A stretch of DNA of 59,937 nt from Actinomycetes bacterium (GTDB lineage Bacteria; Actinomycetota; Actinomycetes; Actinomycetales; Dermatophilaceae). The stretch is from NCBI GenBank assembly GCA_023451855.1, contig JAEXXY010000035.1, positions 1 through 59,937 of the forward strand, given 5' to 3'. Position numbers and translations under genes: made by a program. The notes beneath the pieces were generated by a model, which worked only from the letters and a program-made list of their open reading frames with translations, was not told the DNA's origin and did not search any database. Shown piece by piece: positions 3,507-59,937 of the stretch (position 1 is the stretch's first letter; every line of letters begins with the position of its first letter).

Positions 3507-5006
<1,500 letters not shown>

Positions 5007-31780: not shown

Positions 31781-32479
31781 ATGCACATCTCCGTCCTGGC
31801 GGCGCTCTCGACGGCCAGAACGCGTCGGCGCATCCGCGGCGCCCACCACGAGACCGTCTCTGCGCACGCTCCAGTGCGAGCGCAACGACCCTGCGGCGAC
31901 GCGCCCTCCCGCGCCATCGCCCTGCGTCGCCTCACCCCTGCCGATGCGCGGCACATGACCGACCTGATCCAGCGGCTGTCACCGCAGTCGCGCTACCTGC
32001 GCTACTTCCGGCCGGTGCGTTCCTTCTCCGCGGCTGACATCGCGCGCTTCGTCGGGGTCGGTCCAGGCCACCTGGCGGTCGGGGCGTTCGACGCAGGCGT
32101 CCTCGTCGGGGTCGCGCAGTACTTCCGGTCGGAACGGCCCGACCGCGCGGAGGTCGCCCTCGAGGTGGCCGACAGCCACCACCGTCGCGGGCTCGGCACC
32201 CGACTGGTCCACGAGCTGGCTCGGTTCGCCGCCGACGCGGGCATCACCCACTTCACCGCGACCGTCCTCGCAGAGAACCGGCCCGTGCTCGGACTGATGC
32301 GGCACTCGGGTTGGGATATCGCGACCATCGTGGACGGGCCCTACGCCGACATCGTCGTGAGCCTTCCGCCGCCTTCCCCTCGACCGGGCGGCGCCGCAGC
32401 TAACGTGAGGGACACATCGCGAGGAGGCGTACGTGTCCAGCTATCCCGTCCTGCTCCACACCGCCATCGACGCGCGTGA
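31781..32479 (+). CDS. GNAT family N-acetyltransferase (Pat-type GNAT)
   Basis: LSPQSRYLRYF, AEVALEVAD.HHRRGLGT, VLAEN; 3' end overlaps the next gene. Confidence 0.8.
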   Translation: MHISVLAALSTARTRRRIRGAHHETVSAHAPVRAQRPCGDAPSRAIALRRLTPADARHMTDLIQRLSPQSRYLRYFRPVRSFSAADIARFVGVGPGHLAVGAFDAGVLVGVAQYFRSERPDRAEVALEVADSHHRRGLGTRLVHELARFAADAGITHFTATVLAENRPVLGLMRHSGWDIATIVDGPYADIVVSLPPPSPRPGGAAANVRDTSRGGVRVQLSRPAPHRHRRA

Positions 32480-32846
32480 CTGCCGGGCGCTCGGCGAGTT
32501 CTACCGTCAGCTTCTGGGGCTTCGGTACCGGGAAGGCGAGGAACCGCCGACCGATGGGAGTCCTGACGACGCCGACTGGCTGGTTCTGCTTGATGGAGAA
32601 GGGAACCGGGTCCTGACCGTTCAGGCGAAGAAGGACACCGTGCCTCCGACCTGGCCCTCTGAGCAGGTGCCGATGCAGATGCACATGGACTTCAGAGTGC
32701 CCTCCCTCGAGGAGCTGGAGCGGCACCGGGAGCGGGCGGAGGCCTTGGGCGCCCAGCTGTTGTACGACCGATCGAAGGACGAGGGCGAGCCGCTCTACGT
32801 GCTTGCCGATCCTGCTGGGCACCCGTTCTGCCTCCTCGTCCAGTAG
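32433..32846 (+). CDS. VOC (glyoxalase-like) family protein
   Basis: FY..LLG, PTWP....QMHMDF, LADPAGHPFC; GAGGAGG RBS. Confidence 0.88.
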   Translation: MSSYPVLLHTAIDARDCRALGEFYRQLLGLRYREGEEPPTDGSPDDADWLVLLDGEGNRVLTVQAKKDTVPPTWPSEQVPMQMHMDFRVPSLEELERHRERAEALGAQLLYDRSKDEGEPLYVLADPAGHPFCLLVQ

Positions 32847-32920
32847 AGCAACCGGCGCTTGCGCCGGCTCCCGCCGGACCGGCCCTGCTCGTCGCGACCG
32901 GTCAGGTGGGCACATCCTGC

Positions 32921-52069: not shown

Positions 52070-53371
52070 GTGGCCGATCTCCCCACCCGTGCCCTGGTCC
52101 GCGGCGTGCGACTGGCCGCGGTCCCGGCCGGGTTCCTGGGCCGGCGCGCCGCCGGCCTGGGCCGGCGACTCGGCGGACAACCCGCCGAGCTCGTCGCTGC
52201 CCAGGTCCAGGCAAGAACTGCCGAGCAGCTGTTCAGCGTCCTCGGCCAGCTCAAGGGCGGCGCGATGAAGGGCGGGCAGTGGCTCTCGACCATGCAGGCG
52301 GCGCTGCCGCCCGAGCTCGCTGGGCCTTACGGCGAGGCGCTGACGAGGTTGCAGGAAGCCGCCCCCGCCATGTCTGAAAGCACGGTGCATCAGGTGCTCG
52401 TCGACCACTTGGGACCGGCCTGGCGGGATCATTTCCTCACATTCGAGGACGCGCCGGCCGCCGCGGCCAGCATCGGCCAGGTGCACCGCGCGGTGTGGCG
52501 CGACGGGCGGCAGGTCGCTGTGAAAGTGCAGTACCCGCGAGCCGCGCAAGCCCTGGCAGCGGACCTTCGACAGCTCGACCGGATCGCCCCTCTGCTGCGC
52601 GTCCTGGTGCCCGGGCTCGACGCAGGCGAGCTGTTCCAGCAGCTCACCGCACGCGTCCTGGCTGAGACCGACTACGAGCAGGAAGCCGAAGCCCAGACCG
52701 CGTTCGCGTCGGCCTTTCGCGATGACCTCGACGTCACCGTCCCGGCGGTGGTGCACGTCGCCGGCCACGTGCTCGTGTCCGAGTGGATCGACGGACGTTC
52801 GGTGGCCGACCTGGCCCGCCACGGCAGCCAAGCCGACCGGGACCGTGCCGGGCTGCTGCTGTCCCGGTTCCTCCTGTCGAGCCCGCCTCGGGTCGGCCGG
52901 GTCCATGGCGATCCGCATCCCGGCAACTTCCGGCTCCTGGAGGACGGCCGCCTCGCCGTCCTCGACTTCGGCGCGACGTTGCCCGCGCCCGACTGGTCGC
53001 CGAACGTCCAGGCGGTGCTGCGCGCGGCACGGGACCGGGACACCGCGGAACTGGAGGACGTGGCGCGCCGCACGAGGCTCGTCCACGGCGAGGACGTCTC
53101 TGGCCCGGCCCTTCTCGAGCTCCTGGACCCGCTGGTGGAGCCCCTACGCAGCGAACGCTTCACCTTCGGATCGGCTTGGATGCGGTCAATCGCGACCCGA
53201 TTCTCCGACCCGCGCTCCCCCACCTCGCGAGTGCAGCGGCACCTGCACATCCCCATCCGGTATCTGCTGCTGCAACGTGTCGCGGCCGGCACCACCGGGG
53301 TGCTGTGCCAGCTCAACGCCGACGTGCCACTGGCAGCAGAGGCAAGAAGGTGGATGCCCGCGCTCACGTGA
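52070..53371 (+). CDS. ABC1/AarF/UbiB family atypical kinase
   Basis: [44 protein letters not shown]. Confidence 0.92.
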
Positions 53372-53406
53372 ATACGAACCTCGTGATGCCCTGACACCAA
53401 AGCCAC

Positions 53407-53720
53407 CTATGCGCGGGCCTCCGCGCGGGCCTCCGCGCGAGCCTGCCTCGCGGCCTGCCGCGCGGCCTGGCGCCGCGGCGGCAGAAGCTGCAGCAGGCTC
53501 AGGAAGGCGAAGACGAGGGTGTTGAAGCCGACCCAGAGGCAGAGTGCGGCGTAGCAGTCGGTGTGGAGCGTGGACGTCGCTAGGAGGATGCCGTAGGGAT
53601 ACAGGTAGGCGGCCACGGCGAAGAGCACGCCGGATCGGAGTACCGGACGTGGGACGTAGTTCCAGTCCTCGCGGGCGCCGGTGATGATCTTCCAGCCTCG
53701 CGCCGTCCCAGCGCCACGTT
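53407..53720 (-). CDS. possible small two-TM membrane protein (start unresolved, possibly frameshifted)
   Basis: The 3' end of the 53407..55218 frame encodes two hydrophobic segments and a QAAR/AEAR tail; the RBS-preceded ATG near 53739 is in another frame; 5' limit approximate. Confidence 0.35.
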
Positions 53721-53998
53721 TCCCGAGCTCGCAGCCATGGCGTCCCTTTCGAGCCTGACCAGCCCAGTGTCGTACCGGGACGAAAGGGGCACGAGGCCCG
53801 AACCGTACGAGCCTCGGTGCACGGGTCCGCCGCAGCCACGAAGATCGCCTCGCGGCGAAGAGACCCAGATGGCCGGCTGGCGCCTCCGAGAGGTTCGGGG
53901 GTGGTCCAGCGGCGGCCTGGGTGTTCAGGCTGAGGGCGGCCCGCTCGAGCCGGGACGCCTCGTGTGTCATCGACACGGAGGCGTCCCGGCCCAAGGGA

Positions 53999-54964
53999 CT
54001 ACTTGCCTCTGGCTCGGCCACGTACGACGGCGCCGGGTTCGAGCTGGCCGCCGCCGTAGCCTGCTTCGGCCAGTGCTTTGGGGTGGGCGAGTGGGAGGTA
54101 CTGGCCGAAGCGGACGCTTGCCGTCGCGTCCTCGGCGACCTCGACGCCACTGATCTCGCCCTCGACCATGAGTGCCGGTGCGGCGAACGTCTGCACGACG
54201 TCGGCCGGCAGGGCGAGCAGCCCGAAGCTGGCGGCCGTGATGGTGATCCGGGCTTCGCCCTCACGGAGGCCGTGGCCGGACCAGCTCTGTGCGAGCAGGC
54301 CGGCGAAGGCCTCGTCGAGCGAGTGCGTGGGGACCTCGCCGACCGTGGCGACGCCGCGGTGTACGTGGAACATCCGCGCGAGTGCGACGCCTCGCCCGTC
54401 GTCGTCGGGGTCGAAGTGGAGGTTGGTCTTCGCGCCGGGACCGATGAGGGCCAGACCTTCGGCAGCGTAGGACAGCCGCACCGTCGCCCGAGCGGGTCCG
54501 CTGTCCACCTCTTTGCCGTCCTCGTTGAGCTGGGCCCATTGGCCGAGGCTGACGTCGACGCCGGCGGCCTCGTCTCCCAGGCCGACGCGGTGGAGGAGCT
54601 CCTGGCCGTGACGGATGAGGTGCCGGGCCAGCTCGTCGCCGAGACGGAAGGTACCGTCGTCGTCGCGTTGCACCTCACTCCACTTCCGTCGCTCGTCGGG
54701 GTACGCGGCGAGCCGCTCGGCGTTGCGGGCGCGGATCGCTCCGCTCGCCGAGAACACCTCGACCTGACCGCGGTCGCTCCCCACGGCGTACCCGTGCGGC
54801 ACCTGGGCGGTGCCCTTGAGGTCGATCTGCAGCACCTCGGCGATGGCTCGCGTGGTGTCGTCGCGGTCCTTGGCACAGGGCGGCGTGTGGCTGAGCACCG
54901 GGGCGGTGGATGGGATGTCGGGCAGCTCGACCTTGAAGTCGATGTCGTTGAATGTGAGTGGCAT
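53999..54964 (-). CDS. hypothetical protein, partner of the DUF6345 gene
   Basis: GAGGAG RBS; ATG 10 nt after the DUF6345 stop; 321 aa, high GC3, no signal peptide. Confidence 0.8.
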   Translation of the reverse strand: MPLTFNDIDFKVELPDIPSTAPVLSHTPPCAKDRDDTTRAIAEVLQIDLKGTAQVPHGYAVGSDRGQVEVFSASGAIRARNAERLAAYPDERRKWSEVQRDDDGTFRLGDELARHLIRHGQELLHRVGLGDEAAGVDVSLGQWAQLNEDGKEVDSGPARATVRLSYAAEGLALIGPGAKTNLHFDPDDDGRGVALARMFHVHRGVATVGEVPTHSLDEAFAGLLAQSWSGHGLREGEARITITAASFGLLALPADVVQTFAAPALMVEGEISGVEVAEDATASVRFGQYLPLAHPKALAEAGYGGGQLEPGAVVRGRARGK

Positions 54965-54974
54965 GACGCGCTCC

Positions 54975-55658
54975 TCAGCAGGTTCCGCGCGCGGTCCAGA
55001 AGGACCGGCTGCTGACGGGGTCGGTGGCTTCGGCGACGCGCAGCCGCTCGTTGTAGGTCGGGGCGTCCGCCGACTCGGCCCGCAGGTAGGCCCACTGGAC
55101 GTTGCTGCCCTCGACGATCTCGTTGGCCTCGGCCCAGGCCTCGCGCACCGGTATGTCGACGCGGAAGAGCCAGCTGCCGGACCAGTAGTACAGCCACGCG
55201 GCATACATGGCGAACCACGTGCCGCGGGAGTTCTGGCCGCCGCCGGAGTAGGAGGAGTTGTGGAAGCCGAGCATGTAGTGCAGCCGCTGGAATGCCGGGA
55301 TCCAGCGCCCGACCGAGTTGCTCGAGGTGTGCTCGAGCAGGTCGCAGGCGTGTGTCGCGAAGATCTCGAGGTCGTTCTTGCCGAAGTCCACGGCCTCGCT
55401 GGTCGTGACACTGCCGCCCCAGACGAGGAACCCGTCGGGCCAGCCGTGCGAGGACATCTGCATCGCGTCGACGCTGTCAGAGCGCTGCGTGGTGCCGACG
55501 GTCGTGACGAAGTCCGACTCGCGGACGTCGCTCTCGCCGTGGTTCTGGGTCCAGTCGAACTCGGAGAGCCCGCCGAGCGTAGACGCGAAGCCCTCGGCCT
55601 CGAGCCGACGGCCGTCGATCCCGTCCCGGATCCACCAAGACCCCACGTACTTGACCAT
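54975..55658 (-). CDS. DUF6345 family protein, putative caspase/gingipain-fold cysteine peptidase
   Basis: VD....SSHG, FG.NDLE....AC.LL, W.PAF..LH.MLGF, V.EAW; AAGGGGG RBS. Confidence 0.75.
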   Translation of the reverse strand: MVKYVGSWWIRDGIDGRRLEAEGFASTLGGLSEFDWTQNHGESDVRESDFVTTVGTTQRSDSVDAMQMSSHGWPDGFLVWGGSVTTSEAVDFGKNDLEIFATHACDLLEHTSSNSVGRWIPAFQRLHYMLGFHNSSYSGGGQNSRGTWFAMYAAWLYYWSGSWLFRVDIPVREAWAEANEIVEGSNVQWAYLRAESADAPTYNERLRVAEATDPVSSRSFWTARGTC

Positions 55659-55889
55659 GGTCGTCCCCCTTGCGTGTTGGTGCCATCGAGGTGATGGCTA
55701 CGCACGAAAGGAGGGCGGTGGTGCGCCGCCAGATACCTCCCGCGCCTCCAAACCTGCACGGCGGTAACGGAATCCCAACGGGGGCGGTTCGAGGGGCGGG
55801 AGCGGCGCCAGCTCACACGCTCGTTCGCTCGCTCGCTCCGCGGTAGCGCGGGCGACTGGCGGCGAAGTGAGGCATCGAGGCAGCGTTGG

Positions 55890-56912
55890 CTAACTATGGT
55901 TTGGGGGTCGGTCCTCCGAGTGATGGGCGACGCGCAGCGCGTTCAGCGCCTCGCGATCGACCCCATCCGGAGGGAACACCGCAACTCGGATGTCCGTGCG
56001 AGCGACGAGCGTCGCAGTCCGTCTTCCACCCTCGAGGAAGGCGCGTTCGCCAACCAACGCTCCTGGGCCCAGCTCTCCGCAATGCTGACCGCTGACGTCG
56101 ACATCGACGATCCCATCCAGGACAAGAAACATGGCCTCTTCGCGCGCGCCCTGCTTAGTAACCTCCGTGCCCGCGTTCATGGAGCGGATGGTCGGTTTGT
56201 GCCCCGAGGTCATGACTTCGCGGGAGACAACCCGTTCAAGTGCAGACTCCGCCGCTGCGACCAGCACAGGCGAGTCGTGAGTCCCCCAAGGCGTGTGCTT
56301 GCCGAACGACGCTTTCATCCACGAGCCCGAGTCCATGGTCCCGCTCTTGGCGAAGACAACCCCGTCTCGCCCGTAAACCCAGTGCCGTGGGAACTTGCTA
56401 GCGCCGACGAGCTCAGACTCCACCTCGCCATTCGCGTGAACAGTCAGGCGCAGCGTCGTCCAGACGGCGGGCGATGCGATTTGGGCGTACGGGGGCTGTG
56501 TGACTGGGCGGGGGGCGATCATGCCTGCCCGACCACCGGCGGTCTGCAGGAACGTGACCGATTCACCAGTGATGATCGGTTCGTGCTGAATCGTCGGGTA
56601 TGGGATCGCAGCGACTCGAAGTGACCACGGACCCGCTCGCAACGTTGAGCCGCCCATGATCGCTTCGCTGAAGTCGTCGTAGGTGCCTGAGGCGACGTGG
56701 CCGTCGGAAACTCGAACCGTGACCGAGAGATGATTCGCAAACCTGAACACATCGGCCTCAGCGGCCCCGTGCAGCCACTCTGGACCGTGGATCTGGTCCG
56801 GTGGCGGCCTGTCGTAGTGGGTGAGGCCGGACTCGAAGGCGCCGCGCGCCAGGCCGGTAACCGCTTGGGACGGAATCCAACTCACTGAAGTGACGCTCGC
56901 CCGCGTCTCCAT
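55890..56912 (-). CDS. cyclic nucleotide-binding domain protein with uncharacterised N-terminal domain
   Basis: C-terminal QG....MFLVLDG.V.V...LGPG..VGERA.L.GG.RTAT; TAGTCT 6 nt before ATG (leaderless-like). Confidence 0.85.
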   Translation of the reverse strand: METRASVTSVSWIPSQAVTGLARGAFESGLTHYDRPPPDQIHGPEWLHGAAEADVFRFANHLSVTVRVSDGHVASGTYDDFSEAIMGGSTLRAGPWSLRVAAIPYPTIQHEPIITGESVTFLQTAGGRAGMIAPRPVTQPPYAQIASPAVWTTLRLTVHANGEVESELVGASKFPRHWVYGRDGVVFAKSGTMDSGSWMKASFGKHTPWGTHDSPVLVAAAESALERVVSREVMTSGHKPTIRSMNAGTEVTKQGAREEAMFLVLDGIVDVDVSGQHCGELGPGALVGERAFLEGGRRTATLVARTDIRVAVFPPDGVDREALNALRVAHHSEDRPPNHS

Positions 56913-57016
56913 GGGTTCAGACTAGATGCACTCACTCCAGCTGTCCGCGACACGGCGGGACACGTCGCCGGCTGGCGCCCAAAGCCGATCGTCGACTCAG
57001 CGGTTGGGAGGCACCA

Positions 57017-58363
57017 TTGATTCCCAAGACCCACTACGCCGATTCCCGCGGAGCGGAGATTGCCTACAGGGTCGTCGGAAACGGTCCCAGGGACATCGTG
57101 CTGGCAATGCCGGGGCCCACCCATCTGGACATGCTCTGGGAGATGCCGGACTACGCGGACTTCGTGGACCGACTGTCGCATCTGGGGCGGGTCCTGGCCT
57201 TCGACAAGCGTGGCCAAGGGCTGTCCACCAGAGATGTCGACGGCCTGAGCGCAGAGCAGCGCAGCCGCGACATCATGGCCGTGATGGATGCTGCCCGGAG
57301 CCCAGCGGCAGTGCTGTTCGGCTGGATGGACAGCGCCACAATCGGCCTGCTGACCGCGGCGCTGTTTCCGGAGCGCGTGAGCGCCGTGATAGCGGGGGAA
57401 GCCCTCGCCTTGGGCCACCGCGACGCCGAGCACCCCTTCGGGGTGAAGCGAAAGACGATGAAACTGATCATCAAGGCGATCGAACACGGCGCTTGGGGGC
57501 GGTCGCAGTTGGGACGGGTCCTCAACCCGCGCGTCAAACTGACACCCGCCGAGCGGGCCGCCTACGCCCGCTTCGAAAGCATGGCAGCCACCCCCAAGGC
57601 CGCGGCGCAGCTCTTCCAGATGCACACGGACCTTGACCTGCGCCCCCACCTCGCCGACATCCGCGCACCTGTGCTCCTGCTGCACGACGAGCGCTTCCAC
57701 ATGGTTCCCACCGGCGGCGTGCAATGGCTGGCAGACCGCCTTCCGGACGCGAGGCTCAAGATCATCGGAGGTGCCGAACGAAGAGGCCCCGGCATCCCCC
57801 TCGAGGAGATCTACGAAGAAATCGAGGAGTTCCTCTCCGGCACCAGGGGTGCGCTTGCGAACCGTCAGGTGATGACCCTGCTGTTCACCGATGTCGTCGG
57901 TTCGACATCCGCTGCGGCCACCTCCGGTGACACCCCGTGGAAGTACCTGCTCTCTGCACACCGTGACGCAGTCCGCAAGGCTTTGGCGCGATTCGGCGGC
58001 GTTGAGATCGACACCGCGGGCGACGGCTTCCTGACCTCGTTCATGCTGCCTTCATCGGCCCTGCGCTGCGCCGCACGCATCGTTGGCGACGCCAGACAGA
58101 TGGGTTTCGAGGTGCGGGCCGGTGTGCACACAGGCGAGGTCATGCTGCTAACACCAGGCGGCCTGGCCGGAATCGCCGTACACATCGCTGCACGCGTCGC
58201 GGCTCTGGCTGGGCCCTCCGAGGTCCTGCTGACCGACACAGTGCGCACCCTCGTCGAAGGCTCGGGCATCGCGGTCGAACCAGCCGGCGACCGAGCTCTC
58301 AAGGGGGTGCCCGGAATGTGGGCCCTGAGCCGCCTGGCCAACTATCCGGACACTGTCTCCTGA
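57017..58363 (+). CDS. alpha/beta hydrolase-fold / class III nucleotide cyclase fusion (Rv1900c/LipJ-like)
   Basis: FDKRGQGLS hydrolase fold; LFTDVVGST, TAGDGF, RAGVHTGEV, AVHIAARV, LKGVPG; GGGAGG RBS before TTG. Confidence 0.9.
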   Translation: MIPKTHYADSRGAEIAYRVVGNGPRDIVLAMPGPTHLDMLWEMPDYADFVDRLSHLGRVLAFDKRGQGLSTRDVDGLSAEQRSRDIMAVMDAARSPAAVLFGWMDSATIGLLTAALFPERVSAVIAGEALALGHRDAEHPFGVKRKTMKLIIKAIEHGAWGRSQLGRVLNPRVKLTPAERAAYARFESMAATPKAAAQLFQMHTDLDLRPHLADIRAPVLLLHDERFHMVPTGGVQWLADRLPDARLKIIGGAERRGPGIPLEEIYEEIEEFLSGTRGALANRQVMTLLFTDVVGSTSAAATSGDTPWKYLLSAHRDAVRKALARFGGVEIDTAGDGFLTSFMLPSSALRCAARIVGDARQMGFEVRAGVHTGEVMLLTPGGLAGIAVHIAARVAALAGPSEVLLTDTVRTLVEGSGIAVEPAGDRALKGVPGMWALSRLANYPDTVS

Positions 58364-58645
58364 AGAGACCCACGCAGATCATCGGACACCGAAGGGCACA
58401 CGCGGGCGGCCCCAGGCTGTTCGCGCTGGCCCGGACGAGTGCCGGCGCGCGAGATGACAATCGGCGGTGTGGGCGGTGTGGGCGGTAGGGGCGCGCTGGG
58501 AGCCGTTGTGGCGCATGCCGGTGAGCCGGTGCGCCACGCATCGCCTCCACGTGGGTGGGTTCAAAGGCGTCCAGGTGGTCTACGAGCCCCACCTCGGGGG
58601 CGCCGGGCCACGGGATCGGTCGGTGCGCAGCGCTAGCGTGCTGGC

Positions 58646-59305
58646 ATGACCGACAAGCTGACCCGGCAGGCCGCCTCCGATGCCCTGCCCACGTGGCGGT
58701 TCCTGCTGCAGCGGATGCACCTGACGGTCCGCGCAGCCGACGCCGCGGCCGCCTTCGACTTCGTCTCTCGGGTCGGCGCCGTCGCGGCCGCGCACGACCG
58801 GCAGCTCGACGTCGACCTGCGCGCCCCGGTCGTGCACCTCGCGCTCTCGACGCGTCCCGGCGGCGGCGTCACCGATGCCGACATCGCCCTGGGTCGGGAC
58901 GTCGACGCGGTCGTCGCCGAGCTGGGACTAGCGTCCGAGCCGGGGCCGCTGACCGTCGTCGAGATCGCCATCGACGCCATGGACATCGACGCCGTCCGCC
59001 CGTTCTGGGACGCCGTGCTCGGGTGGGACGTCATCCGGCGCGACGACGTGCAGGACCCGCTCCGACTCGGCCCCGCCGTCTGGTTCCAGCAGATGGATGA
59101 GCCACGGCCGCAACGCAACCGGATCCACCTCGACGTCACCGTCGCGCACGACGAGGCGCCCGGACGCATCGAGCGGGCCCTTGCCGCCGGCGGCCGGCTC
59201 GTGTCCGACTCGCGTGCCCCCGCCTTCTGGATCCTCGCCGACCCCGAGGGCAACGAGGGGTGCGTCTGCACGTGGCAGGGCCGCGACCCGGCCCCTACCG
59301 CCTGA
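58646..59305 (+). CDS. VOC family protein with N-terminal pterin-4a-carbinolamine dehydratase-like domain
   Basis: VDLR...GGVT.AD..L; EIAIDA, WFQQM...RPQRNRIHLDV, LADPEGNE.C. Confidence 0.88.
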   Translation: MTDKLTRQAASDALPTWRFLLQRMHLTVRAADAAAAFDFVSRVGAVAAAHDRQLDVDLRAPVVHLALSTRPGGGVTDADIALGRDVDAVVAELGLASEPGPLTVVEIAIDAMDIDAVRPFWDAVLGWDVIRRDDVQDPLRLGPAVWFQQMDEPRPQRNRIHLDVTVAHDEAPGRIERALAAGGRLVSDSRAPAFWILADPEGNEGCVCTWQGRDPAPTA

Positions 59306-59937
59306 CCGGGCCCGTGCTCGAGCGGACGACCAGCTCGGGCTCGATGACCGCGCCCGTCGGCTCGGCAGTCCCGGCGTCGTCCAGCCGCCCGGTCACGGCT
59401 CGCACCGCCTCGGCGCCGAGCCGGGCGGCGTCCTGGCGCACCGTCGTCAGTGCGACGTGCGGGTAGCCGGCCTGCTCGATGTCGTCGAAGCCCACCACCG
59501 ACACGTCTTCGGGCACCCGCACCCCTGCCTGCCGTACGACGTCGACGAAGCCCAGCGCGCAGCGGTCGTTGAACGCCACGACCCCGGTGGGGCGGGGGGC
59601 GCTCATCGCGAGGAAGGCCCGCGCCGCCGCGGCGCCGTCCAGCTCGGTGAGGCCGCCAGGCATCACGAGCGCGTGCAGCCCCGGCGCTGAGTGCATCCCA
59701 CGCCGGTAGCCCTGGCGTCGTTCCGCGGCGCCCGGTGCCCGACCGCCGTCGAGCAGCGCGATGCGCTCGTGGCCGAGGTCGCGCAGGTGTCCGACCGCGA
59801 GACGCATTCCTAGGGCGTCGTCGGTGCGCACCACCCCGACGCCCGCCGCGCGTGCCGGCCGGAGCACGCTGACGACCGGAAGCCGCTCGGCGAGCCGGGC
59901 CATCGCGGCGGTCGAGAGGTCGCTGCCGACGAGGACG
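59295..59937 (-). CDS. LacI family transcriptional regulator (5' partial)
   Basis: HL.DLGH.RI, AFND..A.G, RVPEDVSVVGFDD, LTTVRQ, LVVRSST; frame open to the window edge. Confidence 0.92.
   Translation of the reverse strand, partial: VLVGSDLSTAAMARLAERLPVVSVLRPARAAGVGVVRTDDALGMRLAVGHLRDLGHERIALLDGGRAPGAAERRQGYRRGMHSAPGLHALVMPGGLTELDGAAAARAFLAMSAPRPTGVVAFNDRCALGFVDVVRQAGVRVPEDVSVVGFDDIEQAGYPHVALTTVRQDAARLGAEAVRAVTGRLDDAGTAEPTGAVIEPELVVRSSTGPVRR

Follow-up and report, generated by a model that had tools for sequence, protein, structure and literature searches.

A predicted DUF6345 protease–partner operon, probably under an ECF54-type sigma factor, beside a separate cyclase/receptor pair in a variable genomic island

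The window analysed here is a 59,937-nucleotide (nt) stretch of a Dermatophilaceae genome (contig JAEXXY010000035.1), and this report concerns a group of genes towards its end. A sensor-cyclase gene (57017–58363, plus strand, 448 aa) stands there head-to-head with a gene encoding a cyclic nucleoside monophosphate (cNMP) binding protein, hereafter the receptor (55890–56912, minus strand, 340 aa). On the same minus strand follow a DUF6345 gene (54975–55658, 227 aa) and, 10 bp downstream of it, the gene of a 321-aa partner protein (53999–54964). A sequence-only reading had joined these genes and a small transmembrane (TM) open reading frame (ORF) into one signal-to-proteolysis pathway, with the caveat that they may be two independent modules. 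Our results favour the caveat. It is almost certain that two unrelated modules lie side by side in a variable island. Taken as a whole, the picture that we propose appears probable: a protease–partner operon under the control of an ECF54-type extracytoplasmic function (ECF) sigma factor, and a separate cyclase/receptor pair.

Results

The two gene pairs do not travel together

To collect DUF6345 loci, GTDB genomes were scanned with a 51-sequence DUF6345 alignment. The 90 candidate stretches yielded 53 loci, 34 of which have 10 kb on both sides. The 111 receptor loci comprise the best 80 of 574 metagenome hits, two relatives and 29 loci from a phylum search with 1.5-kb flanks. Some of the genomes used are unpublished. 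G186 provides one of the 111 receptor loci; G186, G158, G057 and G276 are among the 46 of 401 phylum genomes with the receptor family; G459 is one of four fusion examples described below, and five others enter only the denominator of the sigma factor control. No conclusion hangs on these genomes.

The partner gene follows DUF6345 on the same strand in 51 of the 53 loci, and both misses are at a contig edge. The two halves of the window cyclase and the N-domain of the receptor were found in 0/53 DUF6345 loci, as was a class III cyclase according to a hidden Markov model (HMM) built from the loci (0/53); a generic cNMP domain is present in a single locus (1/53). No third gene is conserved around the DUF6345 loci beyond clade-level neighbours. 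Conversely, DUF6345 and the partner occur in 0/111 receptor loci. At the genome level, 5 of the 31 actinobacterial genomes with DUF6345 also have the receptor family, in no case within the DUF6345 locus, versus 45 of 400 genomes in the phylum sample.

DUF6345 is predicted to be a clan CD cysteine protease

The DUF6345 protein matches PF19872 with 123.9 bits against a gathering cut-off of 26.9 (E 8.6e-36, model positions 12–220 of 221). His71 (in SSHG), Gly72, His103, Ala104, Cys105 (in THAC) and the terminal Cys227 are retained in 121 of 121 near sequences. In the AlphaFold2 model (predicted local distance difference test score, pLDDT, 86.6; predicted template modelling score, pTM, 0.87), strands 65–69 and 99–103 precede His71 and Cys105, respectively. 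The nearest fold is that of SAVED-CHAT 8tl0 (VIA Z 12.4, root-mean-square deviation (rmsd) 3.3, 174 residues aligned); metacaspase 6w8r and gingipain 4ief (both Z 11.7) and legumain also match, and nearly all of the top 35 fold matches belong to clan CD. Foldseek agrees weakly with this assignment (best E 5e-4). Searches of PDB sequences with DUF6345 and the partner gave no meaningful match. The DUF6345 protein does not match CHAT (PF12770) or caspase C14 (PF00656), PF19872 being its only family at E ≤ 0.1, and searches of its own genome for these two families did not list the gene. The caspase-like His/Cys protease called from the sequence holds as regards the fold and the invariant His71 and Cys105, and we regard it as likely, with good confidence, that DUF6345 is an active protease.

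Because neither DUF6345 nor the partner has a hydrophobic N-terminus or signal peptide, the subfamily found in the window looks cytoplasmic. Distant DUF6345 forms are secreted, and four distant partner relatives have such an N-terminus. The spread of PF19872 is patchy (6 of 401 class genomes) and extends over several phyla. On a single contig of Knoellia aerolata there are two DUF6345–partner cassettes, spaced by about 20 kb (L016 and L024).

The partner is predicted to cover the active site

The partner protein itself matches 0 Pfam families. A profile search gave 359 representatives at E ≤ 0.001, and the profile was built from 97. This profile also matches inside long DUF6345 proteins, in both orders: signal–partner–DUF6345 in L196 and L197, and DUF6345–partner in L199 and L200 (unpublished G459), with a split pair in L198. 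A protein-database search for longer DUF6345 forms scored none of 8000 candidates, whereas the genome search did find these fusions, which shows the empty result to have been a miss. The tight DUF6345–partner linkage noted from the sequence is thus borne out by 51 of 53 loci, the 10-bp spacing and fusions elsewhere.

Prediction of the DUF6345–partner complex gave a score of 0.94, the best of three controls reaching 0.00. Of solved complexes 116 of 157 attain that mark, as do 2 of 215 mismatched pairs; these counts are rough for the alignments used. Between runs at least 94% of contacts are shared, and the partner pLDDT is at least 87. The predicted interface of 204–233 contacts takes in protease residues 70–73, 105–106 and 135–141, including both catalytic positions, and protease strand 220–226 pairs with partner residues 141–146. 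Split genes tend to pass complex tests; in favour of the prediction, no solved relative of either chain was found by sequence. The models make it very likely that the partner binds the DUF6345 protease.

Five partner residues (G175, G177, R203, Q258 and P263) are invariant across 84 distant sequences. These relatives show weak matches to DUF4901 (5/84, best E 1.4e-4), FTP (5/84) and YycI (2/84), and the Atlas lead for the partner is DUF6034 at 0.86. The partner is probably a propeptide-like or PepSY/YcdB-like keeper of the protease, as judged from the model and these family resemblances; that the propeptide-like matches lie below the cut-off counts against this assignment.

A conserved motif links the operon to ECF54

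In 15 aligned upstream regions, conservation sets in abruptly at a GTATC that lies some 78 nt ahead of the DUF6345 start codon. The window site, GTATCTG-N16-CTCC at -78, has TG instead of AG as the last two letters of its -35 box; combined with the published motif, this conservation defines a predicted ECF54-type promoter, GTATC-N18-CTCC, at 55710–55736 on the minus strand. Of the 29 actinobacterial DUF6345 loci (phylum assigned from record titles), 20 have the pattern GTATC-N16–19-CTCY between -74 and -83, against 3/436 and 1/293 for other genes of the same loci, and the pattern also precedes two distant fused DUF6345 genes, at -84 and -87. It occurs in 0/22 non-actinobacterial loci, so these pairs must be controlled otherwise; two further loci lack upstream DNA.

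According to the supplement of the ECF classification (PMC7826278; Huang 2015, cited in Casas-Pastor 2021), ECF54 is an actinobacterial group with GTATCAG and CTCC boxes. Its gene context includes a carboxypeptidase-regulatory-like protein at +1, a subtilase and a TPR-CHAT protein, and the main text names no clear regulator (PMC7826278). Proteolytic control has been proposed from this context (PMC8999054). The genome of the window encodes an ECF54-type locus elsewhere (G000:C531:837-4281, L192), with a subtilase at -1, the sigma factor, a CarboxypepD_reg protein at +1 (below the cut-off) and a TPR protein at +2. A GTATCAG-type site at position 658 of this contig points away from the locus.

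A close homologue of this sigma factor is present in 21 of 28 actinobacterial DUF6345 genomes versus 18 of 400 class genomes. A homologue of the +1 gene stands beside it in 22 of 22 close sigma loci, and in 4 of 5 genomes the sigma locus carries the motif too. In G447 the gene of a weaker sigma homologue (E 2.5e-21, no Pfam match) is accompanied by the +1 gene and by those of a subtilase and a CHAT protein, and a fused DUF6345 gene lies immediately before the sigma gene. Within the genome of the window, spacing 18 gave 12 sites versus 2–7 at 15 other spacings. The motif and the sigma factor's distribution make it likely that an ECF54-type sigma factor controls the DUF6345–partner operon.

Several points weigh against this control. 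The motif pattern was derived from a 15-sequence set that includes 14 of the 29 counted loci, and many of the 29 belong to Knoellia/Janibacter kin; support from outside that set is given by the two distant fused genes and by the literature. The motif is missing from 9 of the 29 actinobacterial loci as well as from all 22 others, and in its plain form it was not enriched genome-wide over a reversed control in five genomes (13–19 versus 40–46 sites in four, 13 versus 11 in the fifth). Three of 19 motif-bearing genomes have no close sigma match. The sigma cut-off (E ≤ 1e-36) was chosen after the data had been seen, and the control scored eight candidates per genome. The CHAT part of the C531 locus lies beyond the contig end, and the sigma factor was assigned to ECF54 by context and motif, not by a group HMM.

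The same motif precedes 9 of the 3161 genes of the genome of the window, including a metacaspase gene followed by that of a CHAT protein, and a DUF2589 gene. A motif-bearing membrane protein has a homologue (37%, E 3e-22) that is also motif-bearing in Knoellia. Other targets in the 30 loci examined encode subtilase, papain-like, peptidoglycan-binding, AMIN-like and Zn-phospholipase-C proteins. The DUF2589 gene was guessed to resemble a motif-bearing gene of L258, but the comparison did not confirm this.

Further observations concern the proteases of these genomes. The genome of the window has four caspase (C14) and three CHAT genes, with three adjacent C14–CHAT pairs (G000:C280:12028-15447, C478, C480, C207); where upstream DNA can be checked, the ECF54 motif is confined to the C280 pair. 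Two loci (L019:4349-5950 and L022:16404-18005) encode, a few kb from the DUF6345 pair, a papain-like (C1) protein of 534 aa whose gene has this promoter as well; the former also has a DUF6345 fragment at 3586-3747. In L261, L275 and L282 a conserved protein of more than 480 aa, for which no Pfam match was found, has a gene that diverges from the ECF54 operon and carries the motif at -81.

Downstream of the promoter, the leader contains a predicted hairpin with a 6-bp stem (55682–55698, minus strand). Across actinobacterial DUF6345 leaders, 80% of cells are paired, eight cells show compensatory changes on both sides, and 0 of 500 shuffles scored as high. The evidence for the hairpin is suggestive, the structure having been drawn from the same sequences as the test.

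The cyclase and the receptor resemble a signalling pair

The cyclase combines an alpha/beta-hydrolase fold with a class III cyclase domain, as in LipJ/Rv1900c. It matches the NCBIfam LipJ model NF058673 over its full length with 329.5 bits, below the cut-off of 800, which makes it a homologue and not an equivalog; the match to PDB 1ybt has an E value of 8.5e-43. Asp292, Asp336, His389 and Arg393 align with conserved 1ybt positions. We take the two Asp residues to be the metal-binding ones. Asp332 and Gly382 replace Asn and Asp at the base-specifying positions. Since the apparent nucleophile elbow of the hydrolase domain reads GWMDS, with Met104 at the nucleophile position, this part is probably a non-catalytic sensor.

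The receptor model (pLDDT 87.8) matches cNMP domains in its C-terminal part, where the GE(288–289)...RTA(298–300) cassette is intact. Foldseek with the whole receptor found cNMP domains only. Residues 1–219 match BAS0735 (3c5p; Z 12.2, rmsd 4.0, 177 aligned), a protein whose function is not known and which we take to be a DUF3238 member; Pfam gave no such hit. This N-domain (about residues 1–220) is mostly beta, with a maximal 19-residue hydropathy of 1.01 and many invariant residues, and stand-alone versions exist in the Atlas. The receptor family gave 5906 matches at E ≤ 0.001 among 7999 candidates, some of them via the cNMP domain alone.

A class III cyclase lies within 2 kb of the receptor gene in 44 of the 111 loci, and in 25 of 45 where both flanks are at least 1.4 kb. 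In 20 loci it is divergently upstream, as in the window. Among 36 receptor-linked cyclases there are 19 receiver-cyclases, nine cyclase-STAND/TPR proteins, four with CHASE2, two with MASE3 (one gene twice) and two others, and none is of the LipJ type. A Lactamase_B_2 hydrolase of the metallo-beta-lactamase fold, likely a phosphodiesterase, directly follows the receptor in 37 of the 111 loci; it was not found with that query in the genome of the window, which is 85% complete. In the window, the place after the receptor is taken by the DUF6345 cassette.

No LipJ-type cyclase turned up in the other receptor loci (0/111), which counts against the pair as such, and the pairing seen here may itself be chance. 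Given the co-occurrence of synthesis, receptor, likely breakdown and two-component inputs, a signalling module is likelier than Pycsar. Pycsar was rejected, since the cyclase has no PADLOC PycC match and the receptor has neither a TIR nor a TM effector.

The genes lie in a variable island

The head-to-head arrangement of the cyclase and receptor genes, separated by a 104-bp gap, was confirmed in coordinates and domains. A 231-bp gap separates the receptor and DUF6345 genes. The G+C content at third codon positions (GC3) is 0.74 in the receptor gene, which places it at the 0.1th percentile of the 3556 called genes. The cyclase gene has 0.81 (percentile 1.9), against a typical 0.95 in the DUF6345 gene (52nd percentile); the partner gene has 0.87. 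The gap and the difference in codon bias noted before are thus both real, the receptor and cyclase genes being atypical. The tract was also correctly perceived as foreign: 53400–58532 was not found in the three congeneric genomes searched, two of which are only 81–82% complete, whereas the flank 58533–59937 is retained in congeners and 86–92% conserved.

The possible two-TM ORF (53407–53739, minus strand) had been counted as a component or effector of the system. It is the 3′ end of a broken glycosyltransferase-2 gene. Alignment to an intact paralogue, a 578-aa glycosyltransferase 2 encoded on G000:C515, shows that 53426–53694 matches C515 at 86% nt identity and that 53694–53805 matches 1408 bp further on. 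Since the length of this internal 1408-bp deletion at 53694 is no multiple of three, the part that encodes the TM segments cannot be read in frame from the gene's own start. The remnant was found in 0/53 other DUF6345 loci.

Two more class III cyclases are encoded near the intact paralogue (G000:C515:14000-28000, L245). On the plus strand of the window, 52070–53371 encodes an ABC1 atypical kinase that scores 394 bits against the model of the macrolide-binding ATPase MABP-1, whose cut-off is 800; the 5′ part of this gene has an 86% copy on G000:C244. A glyoxalase-like gene at 32419–32868 has an 88% match near a glyoxalase/LacI block of the congener G001, and the variable tract may reach leftwards well beyond the five genes.

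Discussion

From the computed linkage, fold, dyad, fusions and motif we infer the following mechanism. DUF6345 and its partner would form a self-contained two-gene operon whose product is a cytoplasmic caspase-fold cysteine protease in complex with the partner. The partner would cover the active site like a split-off prodomain, acting as a keeper that inhibits proteolysis or as a substrate gate. In Actinomycetota the operon would be switched on by an ECF54-type sigma factor, not by cAMP. This factor, encoded elsewhere together with a subtilase, a carboxypeptidase-regulatory-domain protein and a TPR(-CHAT) protein, would use the same promoter in front of other proteases, and it may be released when the CHAT protein cleaves the +1 neighbour, by analogy to Csx29/Csx30/CASP-sigma. 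The cyclase and the cNMP protein would make up a signalling pair of sensor cyclase and receptor, which in this case lacks the hydrolase gene often present behind the receptor.

The single pathway of the sequence-only reading, in which the cyclase makes a cNMP whose binding by the receptor activates the DUF6345 protease in one defence or stress system, is very improbable. The two pairs are adjacent on the same strand here with a 231-bp gap, and no terminator-like site was found in 53300–58700, so read-through from the cNMP gene is possible; the sigma-70 promoter and terminator scans, which found 0 each, are uninformative. Many receptor loci are short, which limits the comparison. In the PADLOC check suggested earlier, the receptor matches the PycTIR/PycC models (E 1e-8 to 6e-5) with only its cNMP domain aligned (residues 238–311), and there was no match for the cyclase, DUF6345 or the partner. 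The pathway was rejected because the neighbourhood check gave 0/53 and 0/111, the 5 of 31 genomes that have both show no proximity, the DUF6345 pair has its own promoter, codon use differs between the modules and the TM ORF is a remnant. Within the protease–partner operon, the partner could instead be an activator, folding chaperone or substrate adaptor, with the heterodimer as the working enzyme or as a transpeptidase or ligase. The large predicted interface with its strand pairing, the invariant partner residues and a partner that is never missing where the sequence allows would suit this role, and legumain/peptide ligase and GPI (glycosylphosphatidylinositol) transamidase are among the fold hits, some clan CD members being transpeptidases or ligases. 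An interface that covers both catalytic positions like a prodomain and the weak matches to propeptide-like families make it a less favoured though serious candidate.

The DUF6345 pair might also be an anti-phage or cell-death system in which displacement or cleavage of the partner, as sensor or substrate, frees the protease; we consider this unlikely. It would be in keeping with the patchy spread over several phyla, the variable neighbours and the SAVED-CHAT-like fold, and CHAT-linked sigma factors are described as governing defence elsewhere (PMC10028731, PMC11506125). JetD, PDC-M03, Shedu, a Schlafen helicase, a methyltransferase (MTase) and Fic are encoded near about seven DUF6345 loci. A scan of 150 of the 184 nearest neighbours (15 dropped as duplicates, 19 over the limit) gave 13 PADLOC matches, several of them generic (ABC ATPase, subtilase) and most in one clade, with no control set, so the defence context is weak. 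DUF6345 matches occur in 0/50,697 phage records and 1/72,556 plasmids, distant DUF6345 forms are secreted, and other motif-bearing genes encode secreted or envelope proteins. A defence role is compatible with ECF54 control. In Knoellia, a Schlafen-group-3 helicase and MazG-like pair lies directly upstream of DUF6345 in four loci (L021, L023, L025, L026), and at this position further Knoellia/Janibacter loci carry Shedu, PDC-M03 or an MTase, which suggests an insertion hotspot.

The preferred protease–keeper operon under ECF54 could be part of something larger. By analogy, ECF54 may be a caspase-gated master switch in Actinomycetota, connecting initiator and executioner proteases through transcription in defence or programmed death. 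The TPR-CHAT protein would cleave the +1 protein and free the sigma factor, which would induce a second protease tier comprising the DUF6345–keeper pair, the metacaspase–CHAT operon and papain-like and subtilisin enzymes. We offer this cascade as a speculation and consider it unlikely.

A literature search, outside which most subscription journals lay, found no description of the DUF6345–partner pair, the ECF54 regulon or the receptor. For DUF6345 it returned only a vesicle proteome, unrelated to judge by its title, and for DUF3238/BAS0735 nothing relevant. If the proposal is true, a caspase-fold protease would here be restrained in a new manner, this small cytoplasmic clan CD enzyme having its keeper as a separate protein. 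The promoter, the target list and the predicted protease–keeper complex make DUF6345 and ECF54 directly testable. Taken with the cyclases and hydrolases beside it, the receptor family looks like a class of cyclic-nucleotide effectors not described before.

Compared with known systems, DUF6345 shares its fold with the clan CD structures (CHAT 8tl0, C14 metacaspases, RgpB 4ief with its prodomain, legumain) at Z 10–12, rmsd 3–4 Å, 160–188 aligned residues and 7–13% identity. His-Gly after one strand, Cys after the next and a dedicated piece predicted over the active site are common to both. Unlike the known members, DUF6345 has no SAVED, TPR or CARD sensor, its keeper would be encoded by a separate downstream gene, and this subfamily has no signal peptide. 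The window cyclase shares with LipJ/Rv1900c (1ybt) the hydrolase-fold and cyclase parts over the full length and the aligned metal Asp, His and Arg residues, and differs from it in the score (329.5 versus 800 bits) and in Asp332/Gly382. With Pycsar (PycC with PycTIR or PycTM) the module has in common a class III cyclase that adjoins a cNMP-domain protein. Unlike Pycsar, the window genes are divergent, the TIR/TM and PycC features are absent, and the receptor family keeps company with a likely phosphodiesterase and with cyclases of the two-component and CHASE2 kinds. The promoter GTATC...CTCC and the subtilase/+1/TPR locus are shared with the ECF54 group, the published account of which, in the parts cited above, consists of gene context and a predicted motif; here distant targets are proposed (the DUF6345 pair, metacaspase–CHAT, papain-like and DUF2589 genes), and the sigma factor is encoded outside the window. 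The type III-E CASP system (Csx29/Csx30/CASP-sigma) and Myxococcus DdvA/DdvS likewise link a TPR-CHAT protein to an ECF sigma factor that drives a regulon, as described in PMC10028731 and PMC11506125. Unlike in these two systems, there is no CRISPR or CBASS here, and DUF6345 would be the output and not the gate.

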